NCBI GenBank assembly: GCA_017515285.1
Contig: JAFWGN010000007.1
Span: 48,921-112,920, forward strand
Reading direction: 5' to 3'
DNA length: 64,000 nt
Source of the DNA: Candidatus Saccharimonadota bacterium
GTDB taxonomy: Bacteria > Patescibacteriota > Saccharimonadia > Saccharimonadales > Saccharimonadaceae
Under the pieces are notes generated by a model that ran no database searches, was not told where the DNA came from, and saw nothing but the letters and a program-made list of their open reading frames with translations. Position 1 is the stretch's first letter, and every line of letters starts with the position of its first letter. This document shows positions 11,418-63,998 of the stretch, one piece after another. The translations under genes were made by a program, and so were the position numbers.

Positions 11418-11505
11418 AATACTATTATAGCACATACTTGCTTGTGGTTGATGGCTCGTTTGCGGCTTCGAATAGTTCTTTAATATTTCGAAAACTATTT
11501 GAGTT

Positions 11506-14108: not shown

Positions 14109-15707
14109 CTAAGCGGATTTTGATTTGATGATTGGGAAAGGGACGGCTTCGCGGCCAGAGACACCCTCGAGAAGCCAGAAGTTTCGCTCACTGTTCCCCC
14201 AACCGCAGGCGGGAGGCATGCCGTATTCGAGCATCTCCACGAAGTCCATGTCGAGCATCTGCGCTTCGGAGTCGCCGGCGTCGCGGGCGGCTTGTTGTTC
14301 CTTGAAACGTTCGAGTTGGTCGAGTGGGTCGTTTAACTCGCTAAAACCGTTCCCCATTTCGGTTCCGGCGATGACGGGGTGGAAGCGTTCGGTGACGCGG
14401 GGGTTTTCGGGGTTTTTCTTGGCGAGAGGAGAGAGTTCAAGTGGTTCTTCGACGAGCCAGAACGGGCCGGCGGAGCGCTTTCTGATTAGTTTCCAGACGT
14501 GGTCGATGAGGTGAGGGGTGGTCGCGGTCTCTAAAGTGTGCTCGAGAGATTTTTTGGCGGCGCTATCGTTCTTGTCTTCGGATTTTTTGAATTCGTCGCG
14601 GAGGATTTGTTTTAGTTGTTCCCTTTCGGGGTTAAAAACATCGACTCCGTATTCTTGTTTTAAAAGGTCGGCGTATTTGACGCGAGGCCAAGGTTTCCCG
14701 CCGTTTTCGAGGTCGATGTCGAAATCTTGGACGTGGAACTTCAAAGTCCCCCAAGTTTCACTCGCGACGTATTTAATCATTTCTTCATAAAGGGTCATGC
14801 CGTCTTCGTAATCTTCGAAAGCGGCGTACGACTCAAAGGCGATGTGTTCCGGGAGGTGTTCGTCGTCGATGCCTTCGTTTCTAAAGCGCGGGCCGATGTC
14901 GAAGACTTTTTCGAAGCCGCCACCAAGGAGACGCTTTAAGGGGAGTTCGTGGGAAATTCGGAGGTAGAAGTCTTCATCCAAGGCGTCCATGTGGGTCGTG
15001 AAAGGGGTAGCGTCGGCGCCGCCGGTTGTGTGTTCTAAAACGGGGATGTTGATTTCGATAAAGCCGTGGTCGAGCATAAATTTGCGGGTGGCTTGCCAGA
15101 ATTTGCTTCTTCTAATGAGGCGTTCGCGAACTTCGGGGTTGACGTTCATGTCAACGTAGCGGCGGCGGTAGCGTTCTTCCTTGTTGGTGAAGCCATCGCG
15201 GCCGGGGAGCGGGCGGAGGGTCTTTCCGAGGAGCCGTAATTCATTTGAGAAAACGGAGATTTCGCCGGTTGAGCTCTTTCCAACTTTTCCGGTCGCCTCG
15301 ACGAAGTCGCCGGAGTCGAGAAGCTTCAAAGAACGAACGCCGAAACGCCCGTCCTTCAACCCTGTTCGCTCGCGCCCGTCGTTACGGGGCTCGCTCACTT
15401 CGAAATTCTCGTAAGAATTTCGGGACACGGTTTCAGTACGGACTTTTTCGGCGTCTTTTACCTGCATGAAAATCTGGATTTCGCCGGAATCGTCGCGGAT
15501 TTTAACGAAGGCGAGTTTACCGAAAGAGCGAATAGCGGTGATACGACCGGCGACGGTGACGGTTTTTTCGTTCTTCTCGTCGAAGTTACCAAGGATTTCG
15601 CCGATTTTGGTGTCGCGGAAGGATTTTGCCGGATACGGGTCGATATGTAGCGCTTTGATTTCTTCGAGCTTGCGGAGACGCTCGTTTCTGTAATCTTCTA
15701 TTGTCAT
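14109..15707 (-). CDS. lysS: Lysyl-tRNA synthetase (class II) carrying an in-frame inserted peptide in the anticodon-binding domain
   Basis: Class II core motifs (FYLRISHELPLKRLLGGGFEKVFDIGPRFRNEG; GGADATPF). There are about 30 extra residues (..VSEPRNDGRERTGLKDGRF..) in the N-terminal OB domain, encoded by the repeat at 15369-15393. Confidence 0.95.
   Translation of the reverse strand: MTIEDYRNERLRKLEEIKALHIDPYPAKSFRDTKIGEILGNFDEKNEKTVTVAGRITAIRSFGKLAFVKIRDDSGEIQIFMQVKDAEKVRTETVSRNSYENFEVSEPRNDGRERTGLKDGRFGVRSLKLLDSGDFVEATGKVGKSSTGEISVFSNELRLLGKTLRPLPGRDGFTNKEERYRRRYVDMNVNPEVRERLIRRSKFWQATRKFMLDHGFIEINIPVLEHTTGGADATPFTTHMDALDEDFYLRISHELPLKRLLGGGFEKVFDIGPRFRNEGIDDEHLPEHIAFESYAAFEDYEDGMTLYEEMIKYVASETWGTLKFHVQDFDIDLENGGKPWPRVKYADLLKQEYGVDVFNPEREQLKQILRDEFKKSEDKNDSAAKKSLEHTLETATTPHLIDHVWKLIRKRSAGPFWLVEEPLELSPLAKKNPENPRVTERFHPVIAGTEMGNGFSELNDPLDQLERFKEQQAARDAGDSEAQMLDMDFVEMLEYGMPPACGWGNSERNFWLLEGVSGREAVPFPIIKSKSA
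15360..15420. repeat. GC-rich hairpin repeat (RPE-like) copy inside lysS coding sequence
   Basis: A 25-nt core ctcgcgcccgtcgttacggggctcg (15369-15393) is identical to 49063-49087 in dnaX. It is followed by a perfect 9-bp-stem hairpin cgaaattct cgta agaatttcg. Confidence 0.6.
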
Positions 15708-26856: not shown

Positions 26857-26910
26857 GGGAACCTCAACTAGATTTACTTCCTCTATAATATCACAAAAAT
26901 AGACATAAAA

Positions 26911-27077
26911 AAAGTAGTTTACGTTTCTTTCTCAACGTGAGCCTCATCGCAATCGTAAAAATAACCTTAACAGGCTGTTTCTCCGTGCGGAGACAAGCTC
27001 GTGCTCGAAACAGTGTCAAGGTTATTTTTACTGTTGGTTTCGGCTCTTTGTTGTTTCGAAAGAAAGTAAACTACTTT
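26911..27077. repeat. Long imperfect palindromic repeat family B, copy c (between secY and rplO)
   Basis: A 70-nt core (about 26957-27029) is near-identical to 63882-63953. The outer arms (aaagtagtttac / gtaaactacttt) form a perfect inverted repeat. Confidence 0.7.
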
Positions 27078-27535
27078 TCTTCTTTCTTTGCCCTCATCGG
27101 GACGGGAACCTTTTTGAAGTCGCCACCGGCCTTTTTGACGGCTTCGATAGCGGACTTGCTGGCGAATTGGGTTTCGAGATTGATTTTCGATTTTAGTTCG
27201 CCGCGGGAGATAACTTTGACCTTGACGAAGGGGCTAGAAATGTAGCTTTTTTCGGCGAGGAGGAAGTTATCGACGTTGCCTTTAAGGTCGTTTAAGACGT
27301 CGGTATAGACGACTTCGGCCTTAGCGTGCAAGGTTTTGAAGCCTTTGAGCTTCGGGATGGCTTGCATGATGGCGCGTTGGCCACCCATGAAACCGGTTGG
27401 CATCTTTCTGTGGCCGGTGCGGGCTTTTTGACCCTTGGTGCCACGGCCGGCGGTTTTACCTTGGCCGGCGGAGATGCCGCGGCCCTTGCGGATCGGACGG
27501 GTGTTTTTATAAACTTCGAGTTCGTTGTACTTCAT
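27071..27535 (-). CDS. rplO: 50S ribosomal protein L15
   Basis: ...GRGISAGQGKTAGRGTKGQKARTGH... L15. Confidence 0.95.
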   Translation of the reverse strand: MKYNELEVYKNTRPIRKGRGISAGQGKTAGRGTKGQKARTGHRKMPTGFMGGQRAIMQAIPKLKGFKTLHAKAEVVYTDVLNDLKGNVDNFLLAEKSYISSPFVKVKVISRGELKSKINLETQFASKSAIEAVKKAGGDFKKVPVPMRAKKEEK

Positions 27536-29163: not shown

Positions 29164-29259
29164 TTGTTTCCTTTAGTTTAATAATATCCCCGGTATTTTA
29201 TCACAGAACGGGGAATTTTTCAAGGGCGAAATGGAAACCGCTTCAAGAATTATCTTCCG

Positions 29260-29359
29260 CTTCCCTCGGCCCTAGGTCTTCTTATTTTGAACATAGAGAA
29301 CTAAAGAACTAGATTTATATCTTGGCAATAGATTATTGAAGACCTAGAGCGGAAGGAAG
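29260..29359. repeat. Palindromic repeat family A, copy 2
   Basis: See the copy at 352-451. It is followed at 29401-29436 by a tail motif (gagctcggcttctagggcttgcggttgagc) that also follows copy 1. Confidence 0.85.
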
Positions 29360-29730
29360 CTTAAATGCGGGGCGAGCTTCAGTTCTGTTTTTGTCCAGGT
29401 GCCGAGCTCGGCTTCTAGGGCTTGCGGTTGAGCGCTCTGCGGTCGTGCGACTCCTAGTCCGGTTTTCGTCTGGTGCTCCGCGAACCCTATAATTTTGACA
29501 CATGTTCTCGGTCTTCGACCTCGACCCGCTCGTCGTTTCGGAAAGCACAGAGCGAGCTCTGGCTTTCTCTCAACTCCTCGGGGTTTCACTCAATCCTCGC
29601 AAATGCGCCTCGGGTAACACCGGCCGTCGATTTGCTCGGATGAGGAAAATGTCGTCAAAATTATCGGGTCTTGTGCGCAATCGACTAAAACCGAACTAGT
29701 CGTCGCCTCAAACAGTTAGTTGTTAAAATG

Positions 29731-38923: not shown

Positions 38924-40018
38924 ATGTTAGTTTCGGATTTTAATTATGAACTTCCGGAAGAGCGGATTGCGAAGTTCCCGCCAGAGAGGCGCGGGACGAC
39001 TCGGCTCTGTGTTTTGAATCGGCGGACGGGGGAAATTGCCGATTCTTATTATGCGGAGCTAACGCAGTTTTTGAAGAGGGGCGATGTTTTAGTGCTTAAC
39101 GATACGAAAGTACAACGGTCGCGACTATTTACGGAGCTTCCGGACGGGCGAGCGAGAGAACTCGTTGTGCTTGAAAAACACGGAAACGAACCGCAACACG
39201 TCATGTACCGCGGGAAACTGCATGACGGGGACGTGCTTCGGGTACTTAAAGCGGATTTTTCGGGGCGGGAAAATTCGAGCGCAAAACGAAGCGAGGAAAT
39301 TTCGAAACTCGAGAAGACGGAAAATTATGTCCGAGTGCTTCAGATTTTAGATGGCGGGTTTGCAGAGGTGGAGGCATTTTCTTCTCTTGGCGGGTTTAAG
39401 CCGGTTGAACTGACTAAACTTGCGGAGGAATTTGGATCGGTGCCCTTGCCGCCATACCTTCACCGCGACGCGAGCGAGGCGGACAAGGAACGCTACCAGA
39501 CGGTTTGGGCGAAGAATATGGGGAGTGCGGCAGCGCCGACGGCGTCTCTAAATATGACTGGGGAGTTGATTGAGAGGCTTAAACTTAAAGGTGTAAGAAT
39601 TTGTTATTTGACGCTTCACGTTGGACTCGGGACGTTCTTGCCAATTCGGACGGATGAGGTCGAAAAACACAAAATGCATTCGGAATGGTTTGACATTCCG
39701 GAAGAGACTATTAAGGCGATTCTGGCTGCGAAGCGGGACGGGCGGAGAGTGGTCGCGGTGGGGACGACGGTCGCGAGGACGCTAGAGTATTATGCGAAAA
39801 CCGGCGAGACGGAGGGGGAGGACGATATTTTTATCTATCCGGGATTTAAGTTTGAGATGATTGACGCGCTTTTGACGAATTTCCACGCGCCGAAGTCAAC
39901 GGTCTTGATGCTTGCGTCGGCGTTTGCGGGATGGCCGTTTTTGAAGGCGGCCTATGAACATTGTATCGAAGAGAAATATAATTTCTTGAGTTACGGGGAT
40001 TCGATGTTGATATGTTGA
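38924..40018 (+). CDS. queA: S-adenosylmethionine:tRNA ribosyltransferase-isomerase
   Basis: MLVSDFNYELPEERIAKFPPERRGTTRL... QueA. The start was moved to an ATG with TAAAAT 7 nt upstream; the track ORF start lies inside the upstream gene. Confidence 0.9.
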   Translation: MLVSDFNYELPEERIAKFPPERRGTTRLCVLNRRTGEIADSYYAELTQFLKRGDVLVLNDTKVQRSRLFTELPDGRARELVVLEKHGNEPQHVMYRGKLHDGDVLRVLKADFSGRENSSAKRSEEISKLEKTENYVRVLQILDGGFAEVEAFSSLGGFKPVELTKLAEEFGSVPLPPYLHRDASEADKERYQTVWAKNMGSAAAPTASLNMTGELIERLKLKGVRICYLTLHVGLGTFLPIRTDEVEKHKMHSEWFDIPEETIKAILAAKRDGRRVVAVGTTVARTLEYYAKTGETEGEDDIFIYPGFKFEMIDALLTNFHAPKSTVLMLASAFAGWPFLKAAYEHCIEEKYNFLSYGDSMLIC

Positions 40019-43568: not shown

Positions 43569-44774
43569 ATGGAAATATTGTTGGTAATACTTATAGTGAT
43601 AAATGTGATTTTAACAGGGGTGGTGCTGTTGATTGGAGCGCGGAGTAAAAATGCGACAAAAAATGATGATGAGACCGCGAAAAACGTTGAAAAATTGGTT
43701 GAGGAGAATGTGAAACTTGCAGAAAAGTTGGTAAAGGCAGACACGAAGATTGAGGTTTTGAGTAAGAAGGTGGATGAGCTGACGCCGAAGATTTCGAGCG
43801 AGTTTAGAGAAAACCGGAAGGAGATTTCGGAGAATTTGAGTGGGATTTCCAAGGCGGTTGATACACGGGTGAAGGAGCTTCAGGCGTCGAATGAGAAGAA
43901 GTTGGAGCAGATGAGAGAGACGGTGGATGAGAAGTTGCAGGCGAGCGTCGAGAAGCGATTTAATGAGAGCTTTAAGCAGATTTCGGGGCAGCTCAGTCAG
44001 GTTTATCAAGGGCTTGGGGAGATGAAAAATCTTGCGACGGGAGTGGGTGATTTGAAAAAGGTGATGGAGGGAGTGAAGACGCGAGGGATTTATGGCGAGG
44101 TACAATTGGGAGCGATTATTGAAGATATTTTGACGCCGGCGCAGTATCTTACGAATACTTTAATTAAAAAAGGCAGTTCTGACCGCGTGGAGTTTGCGGT
44201 GCGGATGCCGGGGAAAGAGGCGGAAGTGTTGCTTCCGATTGACTCGAAGTTCCCGGTCGAGAATTATCAGCGGCTTCTAAAAGCGTATGATGAGGGGTCG
44301 AAGGCGGAGATTGAGACGTACCGGAAAGCTTTACGCAAAGATGTTGTAGAGCAGGCGAAGAAGATTCATGATAAATATATCGAAGTGCCAAAGACGACGG
44401 AGTTCGCGATGATGTTTGTGCCGACGGAATCGCTTTATGCTGAGATTTTACGGATTCCGGGGGTGGACGAGGAGATTCGGCAGAAGTATAGTATTTCCCT
44501 GTCAAGCCCGGCGACGCTGCCCGTGATGCTTAATGGGCTTCTTATGGGGTATCGGAGTGTCGCGATTGAGAAACGAAGCGCAGAAGTTTGGAAGATTCTC
44601 GGGGGAGTTAAGGCGCAGTTTGGGAAGTTTGGCGACCTTCTCGAAGGGGTTGAGAAGAAACTTTCGGAGAGTGCGAAGAAGATTGAAGACGCCAGAAAGC
44701 AGAGCCGAAGAATCGAGAAGACGATGAATGATGTCGAATCGTTGCCGGATGATAAGACAGAATTGCTCAGTTAG
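43569..44774 (+). CDS. rmuC: DNA recombination protein RmuC
   Basis: N-terminal TM, coiled-coil, and an RmuC nuclease-like C-terminal domain (VEFAVRMPG...LPIDSKFPVE). The start was chosen at the ATG with TATAAT 7 nt upstream; the alternative is 43560. Confidence 0.75.
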   Translation: MEILLVILIVINVILTGVVLLIGARSKNATKNDDETAKNVEKLVEENVKLAEKLVKADTKIEVLSKKVDELTPKISSEFRENRKEISENLSGISKAVDTRVKELQASNEKKLEQMRETVDEKLQASVEKRFNESFKQISGQLSQVYQGLGEMKNLATGVGDLKKVMEGVKTRGIYGEVQLGAIIEDILTPAQYLTNTLIKKGSSDRVEFAVRMPGKEAEVLLPIDSKFPVENYQRLLKAYDEGSKAEIETYRKALRKDVVEQAKKIHDKYIEVPKTTEFAMMFVPTESLYAEILRIPGVDEEIRQKYSISLSSPATLPVMLNGLLMGYRSVAIEKRSAEVWKILGGVKAQFGKFGDLLEGVEKKLSESAKKIEDARKQSRRIEKTMNDVESLPDDKTELLS

Positions 44775-44778
44775 AAAT

Positions 44779-44956
44779 TATAAAAGTCCATTTTCTCGAC
44801 GGGGTCGCCACCGTCGCTAGCGCGACTTCGCCGCAGTCGTCAAAAAATACCTTAATAGTCGGATTCTCGACATCGGACTTTCGAGTCTCGAATCCGTATC
44901 AAGGTATTTTTGACTGCTGGGCGTGGCTCTTTAATGTCGAAAAAAAGACTTTTATA
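44779..44956. repeat. Long imperfect palindromic repeat family B, copy a (between convergent rmuC and recR)
   Basis: The arms share about 40 nt on each side with 63848-63998 (ttttctcgacggggtcgccaccgtYgctagcgcgac...; ...tatttttgactgctgggcgtggctc...). The whole element is about a 180-bp imperfect palindrome. Confidence 0.75.
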
Positions 44957-44960
44957 ATTT

Positions 44961-45566
44961 CTATAATTTCGTCCTGTTGTTCAGGGCGGCGGAGAGGGTG
45001 ATTTGGTCGGCGTAGGCGAGGTCCACGCCGAGGGGAAGGCCGCGGGCGAGGCGAGTGATTTTTAGGTCTTTGAATTGCTCTTGAAGGAGTTTTTGGAGGA
45101 GGAGGGCGGTGGACTCACCTTCGACGGAGGGGTTGGTTGCGATGATGACTTCCTTGACGGCGTCTTCCTCGACGCGGGCGAGGAGTTCTTTGATGTGAAG
45201 TTTATCGGCGGTTATTCCGTCGATTGGGGAGAGCCGGCCGCCGAGGACGTGGTATGTGCCACGGTATTGCTTTGTGGATTCGATGGGAAAAATGTCGAGA
45301 GGTTCTTCAACGACGAGGATGCTGGACTTGTCGCGGGAGGGGTCGGCGTAGAACGGAGAGACAGATTCGGTGCTGTCGATGAGGGCGAAGGTCTTGGGGC
45401 AGGACTTGACGCCAGAGTGAAGGTGGCTTAAAGTTCCGGCGATGGAGTCGGAGATTTGGGGGTTTGAGCGAAACAAAAAGTAAGCATAACGTTCCGCCGT
45501 GCGCGGGCCGACGCCAGGGAGGTGTCCTAGCGCCTCAATTACATCCTCGAGAGCTTTGGGGAGCAT
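44961..45566 (-). CDS. recR: Recombination protein RecR
   Basis: HhH (LPGVGPRTAERYAYF), a C4 zinc finger region, and a Toprim domain. Confidence 0.95.
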   Translation of the reverse strand: MLPKALEDVIEALGHLPGVGPRTAERYAYFLFRSNPQISDSIAGTLSHLHSGVKSCPKTFALIDSTESVSPFYADPSRDKSSILVVEEPLDIFPIESTKQYRGTYHVLGGRLSPIDGITADKLHIKELLARVEEDAVKEVIIATNPSVEGESTALLLQKLLQEQFKDLKITRLARGLPLGVDLAYADQITLSAALNNRTKL

Positions 45567-47384: not shown

Positions 47385-48773
47385 TTATTCTTCCGTGCGT
47401 TCTTTGTCGAGGGACATGAAGCGGAGGAGTTCGGGGTGGAAGTAGAGTTCGATTTTTCCGACGGCGCCGTGGCGGTGTTTGGCGATGATGAGTTCGGTGA
47501 TGTTAGTTGGGACGAAATCGTCGTTGTTTTGTTTGTAGTAGTCGGGGCGGTGAAGGAACATGACGAGGTCGGCGTCTTGCTCGATGGAGCCGGACTCGCG
47601 AAGGTCGGAGAGAACGGGGCGCGGGTCGTCGCGACCGGTGACGGAACGGGAGAGCTGGGCGAGGGCGATGACGGGGATTTCGAGTTCGCGGGCGAGTTGT
47701 TTAAGACCGCGGGAGATTTCCGTGACTTCTTGGACACGGTTGCCAGCGTAGCGGTCGGTACCTTGGAGAAGCTGGAGGTAATCGACGATAATCATACCGA
47801 GATCGTGTTCATGGGCGGCGCGACGAGCCTTATTTCGAAGCTCCAAAATAGTCATCGAACTCGAATCGTCGAGATAGAGTGGGACGTTGTCCATTTCTTC
47901 CAAAGCATCGCCGATTTTACCATAATCTTCGTCGGTAACGTTGCCGGTGCGGATTTTCCAGTTATCGACGCCGGAGACGTCGGAAATCATACGATCCACG
48001 ATTTCGTTGTTTGCCATTTCCATAGAGAAGAAGAGGACACCGCGATTGTTGATGGTCGCGGCATTGTAGGCGAGGTTTTCCGCGAAGGTGGTTTTACCCA
48101 TCGCCGGGCGGGCGCCGATGATGATTAAATCGCCTTTTTGGAAGCCGGCGGTTTTTTTGTCGAGGTCGCGGAAGCCGGTTTTGAGCCCACGCAGAGCGCC
48201 CTTGTTTTTATGGAGTTCTTCCATGCGGTCGAACGCGTCGGCGAGGAGGCTATCGAGGGCGACGTAGTCGGTTTTGGTAACTTGGTCGGTGACGGTGTAG
48301 AGTTCTTTCTCGGCGCTGCCTAAAAGTTCGGTTGTATCCCGCGACTCGTCGTAACCTGATTCGGAGATGGCGGTGCCGGCGGCGATAAGGCGGCGGCGAA
48401 TGGCGGTTTGGGAAACGAGATTGGCGTAGGCTTCGGAGTGGGTGGCGGTCGGGACGAAGTTGGTGAGTTCGGTCAGATAGGCGGCGCCACCGACGGCTTT
48501 TAGGTCCTTGTTCTTGCGAAGCTCGGCGGTTAAGGTTAAGAGGTCAATCGGGGAGTGGTGTTGGTAAAGGGTTGTCATCGCGTGAAAAATTTTCGCGTGG
48601 CGTTGGTCGTAGAAATCTTTGAATTTTACGACTTCGAGTAAATCGGGGAAATTAGTGTCGGACAAAAGAATGGCGCCGATTAGGGATTTTTCGGCGTTCA
48701 AATCTTGCGGGGGGATGCGGCCGCCGCTTTTTTCGGTTGGGTTGAAGTCGGAATTAGAAAGGGATTCCTCCAT
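47385..48773 (-). CDS. dnaB: Replicative DNA helicase DnaB
   Basis: Walker A GARPAMGKTTFA, the DnaB N-terminal domain, and H4 motifs. Confidence 0.95.
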   Translation of the reverse strand: MEESLSNSDFNPTEKSGGRIPPQDLNAEKSLIGAILLSDTNFPDLLEVVKFKDFYDQRHAKIFHAMTTLYQHHSPIDLLTLTAELRKNKDLKAVGGAAYLTELTNFVPTATHSEAYANLVSQTAIRRRLIAAGTAISESGYDESRDTTELLGSAEKELYTVTDQVTKTDYVALDSLLADAFDRMEELHKNKGALRGLKTGFRDLDKKTAGFQKGDLIIIGARPAMGKTTFAENLAYNAATINNRGVLFFSMEMANNEIVDRMISDVSGVDNWKIRTGNVTDEDYGKIGDALEEMDNVPLYLDDSSSMTILELRNKARRAAHEHDLGMIIVDYLQLLQGTDRYAGNRVQEVTEISRGLKQLARELEIPVIALAQLSRSVTGRDDPRPVLSDLRESGSIEQDADLVMFLHRPDYYKQNNDDFVPTNITELIIAKHRHGAVGKIELYFHPELLRFMSLDKERTEE

Positions 48774-50178
48774 TGTCGTTATTTACCTCCTGTGCTCCTC
48801 CCATTATATCAGAAATTTGTCGAAGTTCGGGAGATTTTTCGAGCTCGTCGGGGTTGTGAATCACGAAATCCTTGTTAAAATTACTTTTTAATATCTCGCT
48901 GTTGCTGGGGCGTTCGAGGATTGCTTTTGTTATTTTCTTTGGAGGGTAAATATCAATTTGGGTATCTGATTCGATGATTTTGCATTTTGAGAGCTGTTGC
49001 TTCAAAGCCGGGGTGAGAGTTTCTGCCGCCTTGCGCAAACCTTCGCTTGCGTCGCCGGCGTCCTCGCGCCCGTCGTTACGGGGCTCGGCGCCTAATACTC
49101 GGTCGTGACCTCCGTGTTGCGCCGCAATCGAAGGATTTGCTCCGGCGGCTTCGTCGCCTTTTAGGTCGTCTCGGAAGACTTGTGGATTTTCTTTAATGTG
49201 AGAAAAAGGAGTTTTCGATTCACTTTCAACATTCGTCCCGCTCGTTTTTAATCCGTCCAAAAAGGCTAACAATAACTTTGCTTCGGGGTAGGGGGCGGAG
49301 ACGGTGGGGAGGGAGGCGAGGAGGGGGAGAAGTTCCGGAGTGGGGGAGGAGACGATGCGGGAGAGGGCGGAGGAGGCGATGGACTCAGGTTTGAGGCCGG
49401 AGTTTAAGAGGTCTTTTAGGATTTTTGTGATTTCGGGGGAGTTGGCGGAAGTGTAGGCGGAGAGGAGGCTAGAGATGGCGGAGTCGAGCGGGAGGCCGAG
49501 GCAGTTTGCGACGTCTTGCTCGGAGATTTGGGCTTTGTCGTTGTCGAGCGTTGAGATCTGGTCGAGGAGAGAGAGGGAGTCGCGGAAAGAACCGCCGCCT
49601 TTTTCGATAATTAGATTAAGCGCAGAATCTTCGATTTTGATGTGTTCTTTTTCGCAGATTTGCTTTAAGTGAGGGAGCATGACGTCGGGCGGGGCGAGGC
49701 GAAAAGTAAAAACCTGGCTTCGGGACGTTATGGTTATCGGGACTTTTTCGAGGTCGGTGGTCGCGAGAATGAAAACAACGTGCGCCGGTGGTTCTTCGAG
49801 GGTTTTTAAGAGCGCATTAAAGGCGGATTTCGAAAGCATATGCACTTCGTCGATGATATAGACCTTAAACCTCCCCTCCGAGGGCGCAACCATGGCTTTT
49901 TCGCGGAGGTCGCGGATGTTATCGACGCCGGTGTTCGAGGCGGCGTCGATTTCGATGATGTCGAGATAACTGTCTTCAAGTTCATATTTGAAGCCGTTGA
50001 TTTCGTGCGCTAAGATGCGGGCGACGGAAGTTTTCCCGCAACCGCGAGGGCCGGTAAAAAGATAACTATGGGAGACTTTGCCGGATTTTAAGGCGCCGTC
50101 TAGGGGCCTTGTTACTTGGTCTTGCCCGACGACTTCGGCGAGGGTTTTCGGGCGGTATTTGCGATAGAGAGCAAGCAT
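48754..50178 (-). CDS. dnaX: DNA polymerase III subunit gamma/tau
   Basis: GPRGCGKTS Walker A, DEVHML, and an SRC clamp-loader motif region. The C-terminal region carries the inserted peptide ..EPRNDGRE.. Confidence 0.9.
   Translation of the reverse strand: MLALYRKYRPKTLAEVVGQDQVTRPLDGALKSGKVSHSYLFTGPRGCGKTSVARILAHEINGFKYELEDSYLDIIEIDAASNTGVDNIRDLREKAMVAPSEGRFKVYIIDEVHMLSKSAFNALLKTLEEPPAHVVFILATTDLEKVPITITSRSQVFTFRLAPPDVMLPHLKQICEKEHIKIEDSALNLIIEKGGGSFRDSLSLLDQISTLDNDKAQISEQDVANCLGLPLDSAISSLLSAYTSANSPEITKILKDLLNSGLKPESIASSALSRIVSSPTPELLPLLASLPTVSAPYPEAKLLLAFLDGLKTSGTNVESESKTPFSHIKENPQVFRDDLKGDEAAGANPSIAAQHGGHDRVLGAEPRNDGREDAGDASEGLRKAAETLTPALKQQLSKCKIIESDTQIDIYPPKKITKAILERPSNSEILKSNFNKDFVIHNPDELEKSPELRQISDIMGGAQEVNNDNGGIPF
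49040..49125. repeat. GC-rich hairpin repeat (RPE-like) copy inside dnaX coding sequence
   Basis: 49063-49087 is identical to 15369-15393 in lysS. 49046-49120 aligns with the intergenic copy at 58800-58890 (tcgcttgcg...gcgcc(c)taatactcggYcgtRRcctccgtgttg). Confidence 0.6.
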
Positions 50179-51261: not shown

Positions 51262-51290
51262 TTTACAATTTTAACACTTTTTGGTATAAT
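51262..51290 (+). promoter_or_regulatory. Sigma70-type promoter of rplJL (TTTACA-17 nt-TATAAT) followed by an L10-leader-like 5' UTR of about 110 nt
   Basis: tttaca at 51262-51267, a 17-nt spacer, and tataat at 51285-51290. Confidence 0.5.
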
Positions 51291-51406
51291 ATGACAAGTT
51301 ACCAAAGACAGCGACGGGAGAAATCCTTAATAATGTCGCCGAGGCTATTCTTCATAAAGTTGGTAACGGAATTTAACAATCCGTGAACTTAAACAAGGAA
51401 AACTAA

Positions 51407-51928
51407 ATGGCTATCTCTAAAGATAAAAAATCCACTTTAGTTGCTGATTTGACTAATCTACTTTCGGATGCGAAGGCGACCGTCTTTGCGCGTTATCAAG
51501 GCCTTACCGTGGCGGAGCTCCAAGAGCTACGTGCGCAGGCCCGCGAGAACGGCGTTAAGATTAAGGTCGTTAAAAACCGCTTAGTGAGAGTGGCGATGAA
51601 CGAAATCGCGGTTTATAAGGATACTGATACGACCGGGCTTACCGGACAGCTCCTTTATGCGATTTCCGATTCTGACGAAATCATGCCGGCGAAAGTCCTC
51701 GCGAATTTTGCGAAGACCCACGAGGCGCTTGAACTCCAAGGCGGATTCTCTGATCTTGGCGCGGCGCTTTCTGCCGACGAAGTGAAGACCTTGGCCCAGA
51801 TGCCGACGAAGAACGAGATGATCGCGCAAGTGGTCGCTACGCTTCTTTCGCCGATGGGCGATACCATTTCCGCCACCGCTGGTGGACTTTCTGGTATTAT
51901 TTCCGGTCTTGAAAACCACGCGAAATAG
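51407..51928 (+). CDS. rplJ: 50S ribosomal protein L10
   Basis: MAISKDKKSTLVADLTNLLSDAKATVFARYQGLTVAEL... L10. Confidence 0.95.
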   Translation: MAISKDKKSTLVADLTNLLSDAKATVFARYQGLTVAELQELRAQARENGVKIKVVKNRLVRVAMNEIAVYKDTDTTGLTGQLLYAISDSDEIMPAKVLANFAKTHEALELQGGFSDLGAALSADEVKTLAQMPTKNEMIAQVVATLLSPMGDTISATAGGLSGIISGLENHAK

Positions 51929-57825: not shown

Positions 57826-58770
57826 TTATTGGGTTTTAATGGATTGGAGGACTTGGCGGGCTTCGGAGGTGGAATGACAGTCCATCAGTTTCGCGCGGAG
57901 GTCGGAGGCGCCGTCGTAGCCTTTAACGTAAATTTTGAAGTAGTGTTTTAGCGGTTCGAATGATTTATGTTGGTTCTTTTTATCGAATAAGTCAAGGTGG
58001 AGTTTCAAGAGGTTAAGGAGTTCTTCGTGAGTTGGTTCGTGGTTAGTGAAGCAATAGGGGTTTTCGAAGACGCCGCGGCCGATCATGAAGCCATTGACAC
58101 CGTAGGTGCGACAGAGTTCGGTGCCTTCCGCTGCGGTTTTGATGTCGCCGTTTACTAGGAGTTTGGTTTCGGGGGAGTATAGGTCTCTTAACGCGACGAT
58201 TTCGGGGATGAGTTCGAAGTGGGCGGGGACTTTGGACATTTCTTTTCGAGTTCGCAAATGGACGGTGAGGGCGGCGGGGTGTTCACTCAAGAGAGTCGGG
58301 AGCCAGGTTTTGTATTCTTCGACGAAAGAAAAACCGAGACGGGTTTTAATTGAAACCGGAAGACCGTTTGAGTTTCTGACGGCGTTTCTAAAACACTCGA
58401 CGGCGAGGTCGGGGGTGCGAATCATTTGAGCGCCGCCGCCGGCCTTGTTGACGTGTTTGTCGGGACAACCGAAGTTCAAATCGACGCCGGAAAAACCGAG
58501 GTCTTTTAAGGCCGCGACGGTTTTTCCGAAATGGTCCGGGTTTTTGCCCCAGATTTGGGCGATGATGGGGGAGTCGGTGGGGGCGATTTTTAGGCGCTCC
58601 AAAGCGTTCGCTCTTCCCTTTTCGCTGGCGTAGCTTGAGACGTTGGTGAACTCGGTAAAGAAGAGGTCGGGGCGGCCGGCGGTCGCGATGACTTGGCGAA
58701 AAACAACGTCCGTCACGCCTTCCATTGGTGCTAGAACAGAAATCGGCTTTTTTAACTCGGTCCAAATCAT
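57826..58770 (-). CDS. dus: tRNA-dihydrouridine synthase
   Basis: TIM-barrel Dus motifs (LAPMEGVTD; catalytic Cys in NFGCP). The start was set at the MIWTEL ATG preceded by TATAAT. Confidence 0.85.
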   Translation of the reverse strand: MIWTELKKPISVLAPMEGVTDVVFRQVIATAGRPDLFFTEFTNVSSYASEKGRANALERLKIAPTDSPIIAQIWGKNPDHFGKTVAALKDLGFSGVDLNFGCPDKHVNKAGGGAQMIRTPDLAVECFRNAVRNSNGLPVSIKTRLGFSFVEEYKTWLPTLLSEHPAALTVHLRTRKEMSKVPAHFELIPEIVALRDLYSPETKLLVNGDIKTAAEGTELCRTYGVNGFMIGRGVFENPYCFTNHEPTHEELLNLLKLHLDLFDKKNQHKSFEPLKHYFKIYVKGYDGASDLRAKLMDCHSTSEARQVLQSIKTQ

Positions 58771-58799
58771 TTTTGATATTATAACATAATACTCGCTTG

Positions 58800-58892
58800 C
58801 GGTCGATAGCTCGTTCGCCGACACGGGTCGCGCCCGCCCGCCGTCGCGGGGGTCGCGCCCTAATACTCGGCCGTAGCCTCCGTGTTGTCGGC
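58800..58892. repeat. GC-rich hairpin repeat (RPE-like), intergenic copy
   Basis: Aligns along its length to 49046-49120 (dnaX copy). It contains cccgccgtcgcggggg and shares taatactcggccgtagcctccgtgttg. Confidence 0.55.
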
Positions 58893-58894
58893 GA

Positions 58895-59052
58895 GACGAG
58901 ACTATCGAACCGCTCGCAACTTCCGTCGAGTCCTCTGAAGCCGTGAAAACAAATCAAACCAGACCCTCGATAAGACGAGACTATCGAACCGCTCGCAACT
59001 TCCGTCGAGTCCTCTGAAGCTGTGGAAACAAATCGAGCCCAGAATAAGCCAG
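58895..59052. repeat. Tandem direct repeat, 2 x 79 bp
   Basis: gacgagactatcgaaccgctcgcaacttccgtcgagtcctctgaagcYgtgRaaacaaatc... repeated with 3-4 mismatches. Confidence 0.8.
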
Positions 59053-63748: not shown

Positions 63749-63808
63749 CTTCCCTCGGCCCTAGGTCTCGCATAGAGGACTTGCATGGAGACCTAGGGCG
63801 GAAGGAAG
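63749..63808. repeat. Palindromic repeat family A, copy 3 (short 60-bp form)
   Basis: Same termini (cttccctcggccctaggtc ... gacctagggcggaaggaag) with an internal deletion relative to copies 1 and 2. Confidence 0.75.
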
Positions 63809-63826: not shown

Positions 63827-63998
63827 GATAAGCCTTTTCTCGACGGGGTCGCCACCGTTGCTAGCGCGACATCGCCGCAGTCGTCAAAATAACCTTAACA
63901 GGCTGTTTCTCCGCGCGGAGACAAGCTCGTGCTCGAAACAGTGTCAAGGTTATTTTGACTGCTGGGCGTGGCTCCTTATTGTCTCGAAAAGGCTTATT
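63827..63998. repeat. Long imperfect palindromic repeat family B, copy b (reaches window end)
   Basis: Arms homologous to 44779-44956 and core identical to 26957-27029. Outer arms gataagcctt / aaggcttat pair with each other. Confidence 0.75.

Follow-up and report, generated by a model that had tools for sequence, protein, structure and literature searches.

The 64,000-nt stretch of DNA analysed here (the window) belongs to a Saccharibacteria (TM7/CPR) genome and includes the genes dnaX and lysS, whose protein products have their closest homologues in Candidatus Saccharibacteria, and a spacer that separates a UvrD-like helicase gene from dus (Table 1). Each of these three places holds one copy of a GC-rich palindromic element. 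A profile built from copies outside the window recovered exactly these three, all on the minus strand, which corresponds to a density of about one copy per 20-30 kb. The ends of the dnaX copy were set by alignment to copies with the same arms in other genes or genomes (L112, L079, L015 and L001). Downstream of the intergenic copy, the dus start codon (ATG) lies at 58770 and the Pfam Dus match begins at residue 13 of the product; the predicted dus −35 hexamer sits within the 3' arm of this copy. On the other side of the copy, the two direct repeats correspond to its 5' arm, duplicated together with upstream sequence; this 79-nt-period duplication was not reported by Tandem Repeats Finder. Neither a transposase, among the 38 window ORFs scanned with Pfam, nor a reverse transcriptase, among the window ORFs scanned, was detected.

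Table 1. Coordinates of the element copies, their parts and neighbouring features in the window
Feature	Position	Strand	Evidence or details
lysS (lysine--tRNA ligase), host gene	14109-15707	-	Pfam
Complete element copy in lysS, subfamily 'F'	15335-15455	-	nhmmer E = 4.8e-14; fold -58.4 kcal/mol
Parts of the lysS copy	P2 15401-15422; core 15370-15392	-	fold
Translation of the lysS copy, interrupting the OB-fold anticodon-binding domain	15335-15455	-	DAEKVRTETVSRNSYENFEVSEPRNDGRERTGLKDGRFG
dnaX (DNA polymerase III gamma/tau), host gene	48754-50178	-	Pfam DNA_pol3_delta2 and lid domain
Complete element copy in dnaX, subfamily 'E'	49026-49146	-	nhmmer E = 9.5e-14; three-way junction, -67.4 kcal/mol
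Translation of the dnaX copy	49026-49146	-	AGANPSIAAQHGGHDRVLGAEPRNDGREDAGDASEGLRKA
Invariant tip hairpin P3 of the dnaX copy	49064-49086	-	GAGCCCCGTAACGACGGGCGCGA, stem CCCGT/ACGGG
5' half of a second, unrelated in-frame palindromic family	49153-49206	-	peptide FSHIKENPQVFRDDLKGD; FSHIKENPQVFRDDLKG
Promoter-like site for dus	58778-58806	-	TCGACC, 17-nt spacer, TATAAT; TG ahead of -10; consensus match only
Intergenic copy, spacer between UvrD-like helicase gene and dus	about 58799-58913	-	nhmmer E = 0.013; -77.5 kcal/mol
Parts of the intergenic copy	arms 58803-58826 and 58880-58909; P3 58827-58858	-	outer stem about 27 bp
Two direct repeats, 67 nt, 94% identical, 79-nt period	58894-59039	-	self-comparison

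A first-pass annotation of this DNA had proposed that part of dnaX resembles an intergenic sequence and shares a 25-nt core with lysS. Both relationships are real. Positions 49067-49119 in dnaX show 81% identity over 53 ungapped nt to positions 58835-58887 upstream of dus (E = 4.6e-10 in self-BLASTN), and the block tcgcttgcg is common to the two copies, as had been noted. A 27-nt block, TAATACTCGGYCGTRRCCTCCGTGTTG, occurs exactly twice in the window; no occurrence was expected from 100 shuffles. The differences between the dnaX and intergenic copies were of all kinds rather than adenine-specific, and a diversity-generating retroelement was rejected on this ground. Positions 15369-15393 of lysS were 100% identical over 25 nt to positions 49063-49087 of dnaX (E = 2.8e-6), and this core is read in one common frame, yielding ...GAEPRNDGRED... 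in DnaX and ...SEPRNDGRER... in LysS. The dnaX copy lies in a variable linker past residue about 345. In the suggested comparison with DnaX orthologues, EPRNDG was found in none of the 120 closest homologues. One DnaX homologue, P0004, carries the element in another frame.

The full element is about 110-130 nt long, and the copies that we folded had energies of -54 to -78 kcal/mol. The similarity first noticed over about 75 nt is genuine, and the element itself is longer, spanning the full intervals given in Table 1. Around the core, conservation reaches from about -45 to +50 nt, beyond which none remains. Every copy folded gave the same three-way junction of stems P1, P2 and P3. The outer stem, P1, is long; semi-conserved sequence makes up its inner part (TTCGAGG / CCGAGAA, with tandem G·A), and its outer 16-25 bp differ between copies. 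In the hairpin P2, the apical motif (GCGACRACGGGAGC or GGY-TACG-RCC) is conserved, and the stem below it shows numerous compensatory variants, among them TTCGC/GCGAG, TTTGC/GCAAA, ATTTTCC/GGAAAAT and ATTTGGC/GCCAAAT. P3 forms a nearly invariant tip, CCCGT-AACG-ACGGG (GAGCCCCGTAACGACGGGCGCGA). In the intergenic copy, the CCCGT/ACGGG pairing of this tip is replaced by CCCGC/GCGGG, a compensatory pair (CCCGC-GACG-GCGGG). The motif ACGACGGG is common to P2 and P3. On the antisense strand, CCCGTCGT is seen in both hairpins.

RNAalifold, applied to a MAFFT alignment of all copies, recovered the tip hairpin only, because the arms could not be aligned by sequence. Pairing was instead judged by comparing self with non-self complementarity and by chimera tests. 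The mean arm complementarity score was 13.5 within a copy versus 5.1 between copies, and pairing of a copy's own arms exceeded the 99th percentile of non-self pairs in 106 of 118 copies. The likeness score between the arms of different copies was 5.2, the same as random, and only a few arm lineages were shared between copies. The orthologous copies L036 and L096 differ by compensatory changes in their arms. No Rfam match overlapped any of the three window copies at E values up to 5. It had been observed that the copies have only subsets of modules in common, and this partial sharing was confirmed; its reason is that the family consists of modular subfamilies with an invariant tip, a covarying hairpin and copy-specific arms. 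The accompanying view that the family is degenerating is not sustained: the three window copies are complete, belong to different subfamilies and each adopt the full structure, at -58 to -78 kcal/mol.

We then surveyed other genomes by an exact-match scan for the 23-mer GAGCCCCGTAACGACGGGNGCGA. As every copy in this census was found via the exact 23-mer, estimates of core conservation are biased upward. At least 119 stretches containing the 23-mer were found in a genome collection with one genome per species, and at least 120 further stretches in metagenomes; after removal of duplicates, at least 240 unique copies remained, with several per genome. Among the genome matches listed, all but a few were labelled Saccharibacteria or Nanosyncoccus, and they came from ruminant, human and termite guts. 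The exceptions among these listed matches were bins without a classification and a single 5-kb contig that had been assigned to Faecalibacterium. The viral contigs scanned for the 23-mer contained 0 copies, and phage was rejected as a vector on that basis. A subfamily-specific 30-mer had no match in metagenomes. A peptide search of 1.84 billion cluster representatives returned 2 matches and was uninformative because the representatives mostly lack the insert. The chance-level short matches that the first-pass annotation had considered as an alternative outcome were not what was seen: copies elsewhere number in the hundreds and have extended structure flanking the core.

Among the 199 copies with at least 300 nt of flank on each side, 186 (93%) lay within a long ORF, defined as an open stretch of at least 450 nt. 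Together with the intergenic copy, this agrees with the proposal that the element tolerates both coding and non-coding contexts. The apparent hosts include LysRS, DnaX, IleRS/ValRS/LeuRS-like, MnmA-like, MiaA-like, Der-like and GatA-like proteins, among others; those beyond LysRS and DnaX were named from short conserved motifs in the translated flanks rather than from domain searches. In a full-text search of the Saccharibacteria and CPR literature, with most subscription journals outside its coverage, no such element was described. The family is apparently undescribed.

Filled and empty orthologous sites could be aligned directly. In 542 comparisons, the spacing in orthologues was bimodal, with a filled peak at 165-179 nt and an empty peak at 60-89 nt, indicating a net insertion of about 85-114 nt. 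The orthologue length differences were multiples of three in 529 of the 542 cases (98%). Nearly identical elements were also found at unrelated sites. An element of 111-113 nt with the ends CGCGAGG…CCTCGCG occupies five such sites (L087, L121, L141, L029 and L037), and three more groups of near-identical elements are distributed similarly; the near-identical elements measure 111-121 nt overall. The dnaX copy of the window has both arms in common with L112, which lies in a different gene of a different genome. The number of unique copies, their location mostly within long ORFs of unrelated genes, the filled and empty orthologous sites and the near-identical elements at unrelated loci strongly uphold the earlier proposal of a mobile palindromic family. 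At L037, removal of 111 nt leaves HYARVE|LPALLRATDENK, equal in length to the empty orthologue HYARIIDNNLARAADENK (read by eye).

Alignment of the copies defined the ends of the element, as the first-pass annotation had envisaged; the target-site duplications that were to be defined in the same way were not seen. Specifically, no direct duplication was present at 11 independent junctions at which near-identical elements at unrelated sites were compared. Just outside the shared ends, 2-9 bp were often mutually complementary (AAATA|TATTA, GGAG|CTCC, cgaattca|tgaattcg), and a chimera energy test of this complementarity, a weak test, gave p = 0.02. Pre-existing structure at empty sites was not measurably above that of control windows. 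An automated junction analysis was set aside as unreliable, the alignment ends being out of register. LysS had hinted that an arm is an inverted duplication of the host flank. This origin is contradicted by the same-arm elements at unrelated sites, and we keep it for the outermost few base pairs only. In the closest filled/empty pair, the proteins were 94% identical, and no insertion was caught between near-isogenic strains. As there was no near-isogenic filled/empty pair, we infer the exact target and junctions.

Among the 186 copies in long ORFs, five reading frames were in use. In the sense orientation with respect to the host gene, which accounts for 78% of copies, the core is read as EPRNDGRE in 96 and as SPVTTGA in 49. 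In the antisense orientation, it is read as LAPVVTGL in 17, SRPSLRGS in 16 and RARRYGA in 8. The remaining sense frame, which has a TAA in the core, was used in 0 of the 186 copies, an outcome with a probability of about 2e-15 under equal use of the six frames. This absence indicates that ribosomes read through the element and that stop-containing insertions are purged. Moreover, five of the core's six frames are open, and exactly those five are used, which argues that the element is translated rather than removed. In the first set of copies, eight lay outside long ORFs, and none of these was in a gene broken at the TAA.

The lysS copy illustrates the setting in which such inserts occur. The Pfam OB-fold match in the window LysS ends at residue 90, and most of the 120 LysS homologues compared (about 493-506 aa) lack the segment. 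In the alignment of these homologues with the window protein, 26 of 121 sequences have inserts of various kinds in one loop. In an AlphaFold model, residues 88-117 had a pLDDT below 50 and no secondary structure, and were flanked by confident OB-fold elements; the catalytic domain of this model was mediocre and was left unused. The lysS element is thus placed in a loop that is predicted to be disordered. Although the window LysS and its homologues P0121-P0125 are 91-98% identical outside this loop (97.7% for P0123 versus P0124), they contain four different palindromic inserts. A further LysS homologue with an insert in this loop, P0161, carries HHGGHDRVIAAEPRNDGREDSGD, the version found in the window's dnaX, in another gene of another genome; at the DNA level, P0161 and the window dnaX copy are about 92% identical over about 75 nt (read by eye). 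What occupied three orthologous sites that we examined depended on the genome: a different subfamily, an inverted copy that has diverged, or another palindromic family. L006 and L055 have the element in opposite orientations at one and the same site, as do L027 and L113; either repeated insertion or a flip through recombination between the arms would explain this.

We interpret the window copies as members of a Saccharibacteria-restricted family of GC-rich palindromes, selfish mobile DNA that is non-autonomous and has its analogue in the Rickettsia palindromic elements (RPEs), and assign this reading a probability of roughly 0.78. The data fit an element that owes its survival to being translatable and to landing in permissive loops. 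As the centre is conserved, the termini vary and no direct target-site duplication was found, recognition may occur via the folded form, either a single-strand hairpin or a cruciform, rather than via conserved terminal sequences. Recombination between the arms would flip the core in place, and repeated insertion with partial deletion at the same sites could give rise to the site-specific outer stems.

It is improbable that the element is instead a functional cis-acting structure, such as an mRNA or DNA binding or processing site, that selection keeps at each locus and whose spread is secondary. Such a function would account for the preservation of P1 and P2 pairing through compensatory changes; however, quasipalindrome correction, in which template switching between arms maintains pairing, could preserve it without selection by acting within a strand. 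It would also account for the stability of the tip, which had 0-4 changes per 23 nt (by eye) in the few orthologous copies that fell outside the 23-mer selection, with flanks 70-80% identical, so that the tip appears better conserved than the coding DNA beside it, and for the presence of ACGACGGG in both P2 and P3. The 78% sense bias also fits a host-level or RNA-level function, and the predicted −35 box of dus falls within an arm. Against this, the element occurs in either orientation and in five frames, has dozens of unrelated genes as hosts and can lie anywhere along the gene; a large number of orthologues do not have it; its sites are also used by unrelated palindromic families; and no Rfam family was matched.

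Nor do the data favour a useful peptide module, EPRNDGRE with its flanks, spread among proteins by recombination. EPRNDGRE is the commonest frame (96 of 186), is hydrophilic and is located in loops, but the frame census contradicts the idea: the four other frames, on both strands, encode unrelated peptides. The element also occurs between genes, and conservation is seen in the nucleotide sequence and its pairing rather than in the peptide. We consider this explanation very unlikely. Slightly less credible still is a core that serves for DNA uptake or as a genome-wide signal, like DUS/USS. Saccharibacteria are naturally transformable, and an invariant short motif that is found in one taxon, in coding DNA and in preferred frames has the appearance of such a signal. 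Uptake sequences, however, are far denser than the one copy per 20-30 kb of the window, and every occurrence of the motif belongs to a palindromic unit of about 120 nt, which a site has in its entirety or not at all. Finally, a local artefact, in which GC-rich codons resemble each other by chance or three loci of this genome shared a single duplication or gene-conversion event, might be entertained given only three copies in 64 kb and a lysS match of just 25 nt, but is refuted by the 0 matches expected in shuffles and by the hundreds of copies in other genomes, where extended structure flanks the core.

The interpretation as selfish, translated DNA invites comparison with RPE-1 to RPE-10 of Rickettsia (Ogata et al. 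2000, summarised in PMC10969869 and PMC3733652). As RPEs are described there, the two groups are alike in being palindromic repeats of about 100-150 nt in the reduced genome of a host-dependent bacterium. Both lie in-frame within unrelated housekeeping genes, where they are presumed to be translated, and both have intergenic copies (PMC10969869, PMC3733652); for neither do these accounts and our own scan make a transposase known. The element described here forms a hairpin unit of 110-130 nt, within the 100-150 bp or so typical of RPEs, and like them is inserted in-frame in unrelated ORFs, with 93% of copies in long ORFs and 98% of length differences in multiples of three. RPEs are found in Alphaproteobacteria, whereas the present family belongs to CPR/Saccharibacteria. 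Compared with RPEs, it has a conserved centre, the tip hairpin, and a copy-specific outer stem; it uses five frames on both strands, and its loops are re-used by several families in both orientations. We have therefore filed the element as an analogue of RPEs, likened to them by described behaviour rather than by sequence, and not as a member, since its core was found almost only in Saccharibacteria among the genome matches listed. It is an RPE-like family in a new phylum, distinguished by its central junction, site-specific outer stems, five frames, re-use of sites and inversion.

Other classes of short palindromes are less similar. REP and REPIN elements, mobilised by RAYT, which are Y1 transposases of the IS200/IS605 type, include CGTC-tagged REPs (PMC3733652). 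They are likewise small GC-rich stem-loops that are recognised as structures and leave no target-site duplication. REPs are occasionally intragenic, and CGTC REPs, some RPEs included, lack a dedicated transposase (PMC3733652). The element described here has CCCGTCGT on the antisense strand of P2/P3, but this likeness is internal and goes no further. REPs are 20-40 nt long, mostly extragenic and tagged at one end with GTAG or CGTC, and REPIN arms are conserved; by contrast, the present element is about 120 nt long, with a three-way junction and variable arms, and is 93% intragenic. No conserved terminal tetranucleotide, the mark of a tagged REP or REPIN palindrome, is present, and the family falls outside the REP/REPIN definition. 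MITEs (Correia/NEMIS, ERIC, RUP and Nezha) are also short, non-autonomous, structured and multicopy, and sometimes create in-frame fusions (PMC10969869). They differ in having conserved terminal inverted repeats, direct target-site duplications and a parent insertion sequence. Because the present family showed neither conserved termini nor direct duplication, it is not a classical MITE.

Compact genomes offer further precedents. The GC clusters, double-hairpin elements and 'byp' elements of fungal mitochondria are GC-rich mobile hairpins in coding genes. Byp elements are skipped by the ribosome. In the present family, the stop-containing frame is strictly avoided, which points to translation through the element rather than skipping.

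The genomes of Saccharibacteria measure about 1 Mb at most. Despite this small size, they harbour translated inserts of 30-40 residues in LysRS, DnaX, other tRNA synthetases and tRNA-modification and GTPase-like genes. The family would be a second, independent case of 'selfish DNA inside proteins', which at this frequency has been documented mainly in Rickettsia. It is also much better sampled than the Rickettsia case, with hundreds of copies in many species, so that rules of tolerance, turnover and origin become testable. Such inserts may be one source of the hypervariable linkers of CPR proteins and of length variation in them that has had no explanation, and they call for caution when these proteins are annotated, used in phylogenomics or submitted to structure prediction. 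The invariant 23-mer also provides a specific marker of the Saccharibacteria clade. More tentatively, the family might represent a new kind of intragenic mobile element, one that is recognised and moves by way of its folded three-way junction and not of its ends, inserts without target duplication at dyads, either those of short palindromes or those of earlier elements, flips in place by recombination between its arms and has evolved a core open in five frames; at present we regard this as possible but rather doubtful. If it were true, every flip or insertion would remain translatable, and the element would act as a turnover engine, continually rewriting disordered loops in the essential proteins of ultra-small CPR bacteria.

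A last feature of dnaX concerns the second palindromic family listed in Table 1, a half of which lies directly upstream of the dnaX copy. The adjoining positions indicate that the two families are nested or that one has been partly replaced by the other. Full versions of the second family (…SKEKSRVFRDDLKGEQSMAGATRSALRA…EKN.TDFS…) were found in 14 of 120 DnaX homologues, in the LysS homologue P0124 and in a LeuRS-like gene in L115.

Two LysS homologues, P0123 and P0124 (from the compared DNA stretches L126 and L127, respectively), are 97.7% identical outside a single loop. Within that loop, P0123 has a palindromic insert of 70 residues and P0124 one of 67 residues, and the two inserts are unrelated. 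This difference implies that the inserts are replaced very rapidly. Several differing inserts, namely those of stretches L106, L115 and L128 (the last encoding LysS homologue P0122), share the motif TTCGACCGCAAGCGA at their 3′ ends; the motif encodes peptides such as STASE and RPQAS. The same motif occurs in the dus promoter region of the window. TTCGACCGCAAGCGA may represent an outer module common to a wider superfamily.

Two further sites in the window may be related to the GC-rich palindromic element. The queA insert is similar in size to the full copy carried at the same site by L113, a stretch from outside the window. It retains a P2-like hairpin (GATTTTTCGGGGCGGGAAAATTC) and lacks the tip hairpin, and may be a decayed copy of the element. 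The second site is 42 nt long and shares 81% identity with the region spanning the 3′ arm of the spacer copy and the associated promoter region (58777-58818). This stretch lies directly 5′ of the start of a DUF2207 gene and contains TCAACC…TATAAT, with an ATG 6 nt further on. The stretch may represent the remnant of an arm and may provide a promoter for a leaderless mRNA.

The window also harbours two other repeat families. Two copies of the first, a palindromic family, are 98% identical; this family has no sequence relation to the element described here. In the second family, of ∼170-190 nt, the internal blocks are 83-96% identical from copy to copy, and its organization looks like that of an intergenic MITE.

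Repeats and other features located in the window
Feature	Positions	Strand	Characteristics
Palindromic repeat family	351-454, 29259-29362, 63749-63808		arms CTTCCCTCGGCCCTAGGTCTTC / GAAGACCTAGAGCGGAAGGAAG
∼170-190-nt repeat family	26901-27087, 44772-44963, 63828-63997		inverted ends of 17-25 nt, internal hairpin
Arm-like stretch	11423-11463		
queA insert	39250-39330	+	
TTCGACCGCAAGCGA near dus	58791-58803		
Candidate L10 leader (RF00557)	51284-51386	+	5′ of ORF 51407-51928

Outside the window, a 5-kb contig that bears the label 'uncultured Faecalibacterium sp.' (L096, CAZRGP010000062.1) also contains the element. The site that the element occupies there is orthologous to two Saccharibacteria loci, L036 and L043, and the contig is probably mis-binned.

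Separately, the candidate leader of ribosomal protein L10 scored 43.7 bits, narrowly missing the gathering score of 44. The GC skew of the plus strand is positive in every 1-kb bin of the window except one, and 43 of the 55 long ORFs lie on the minus strand. The coding strand is thus C-rich, which is unusual.
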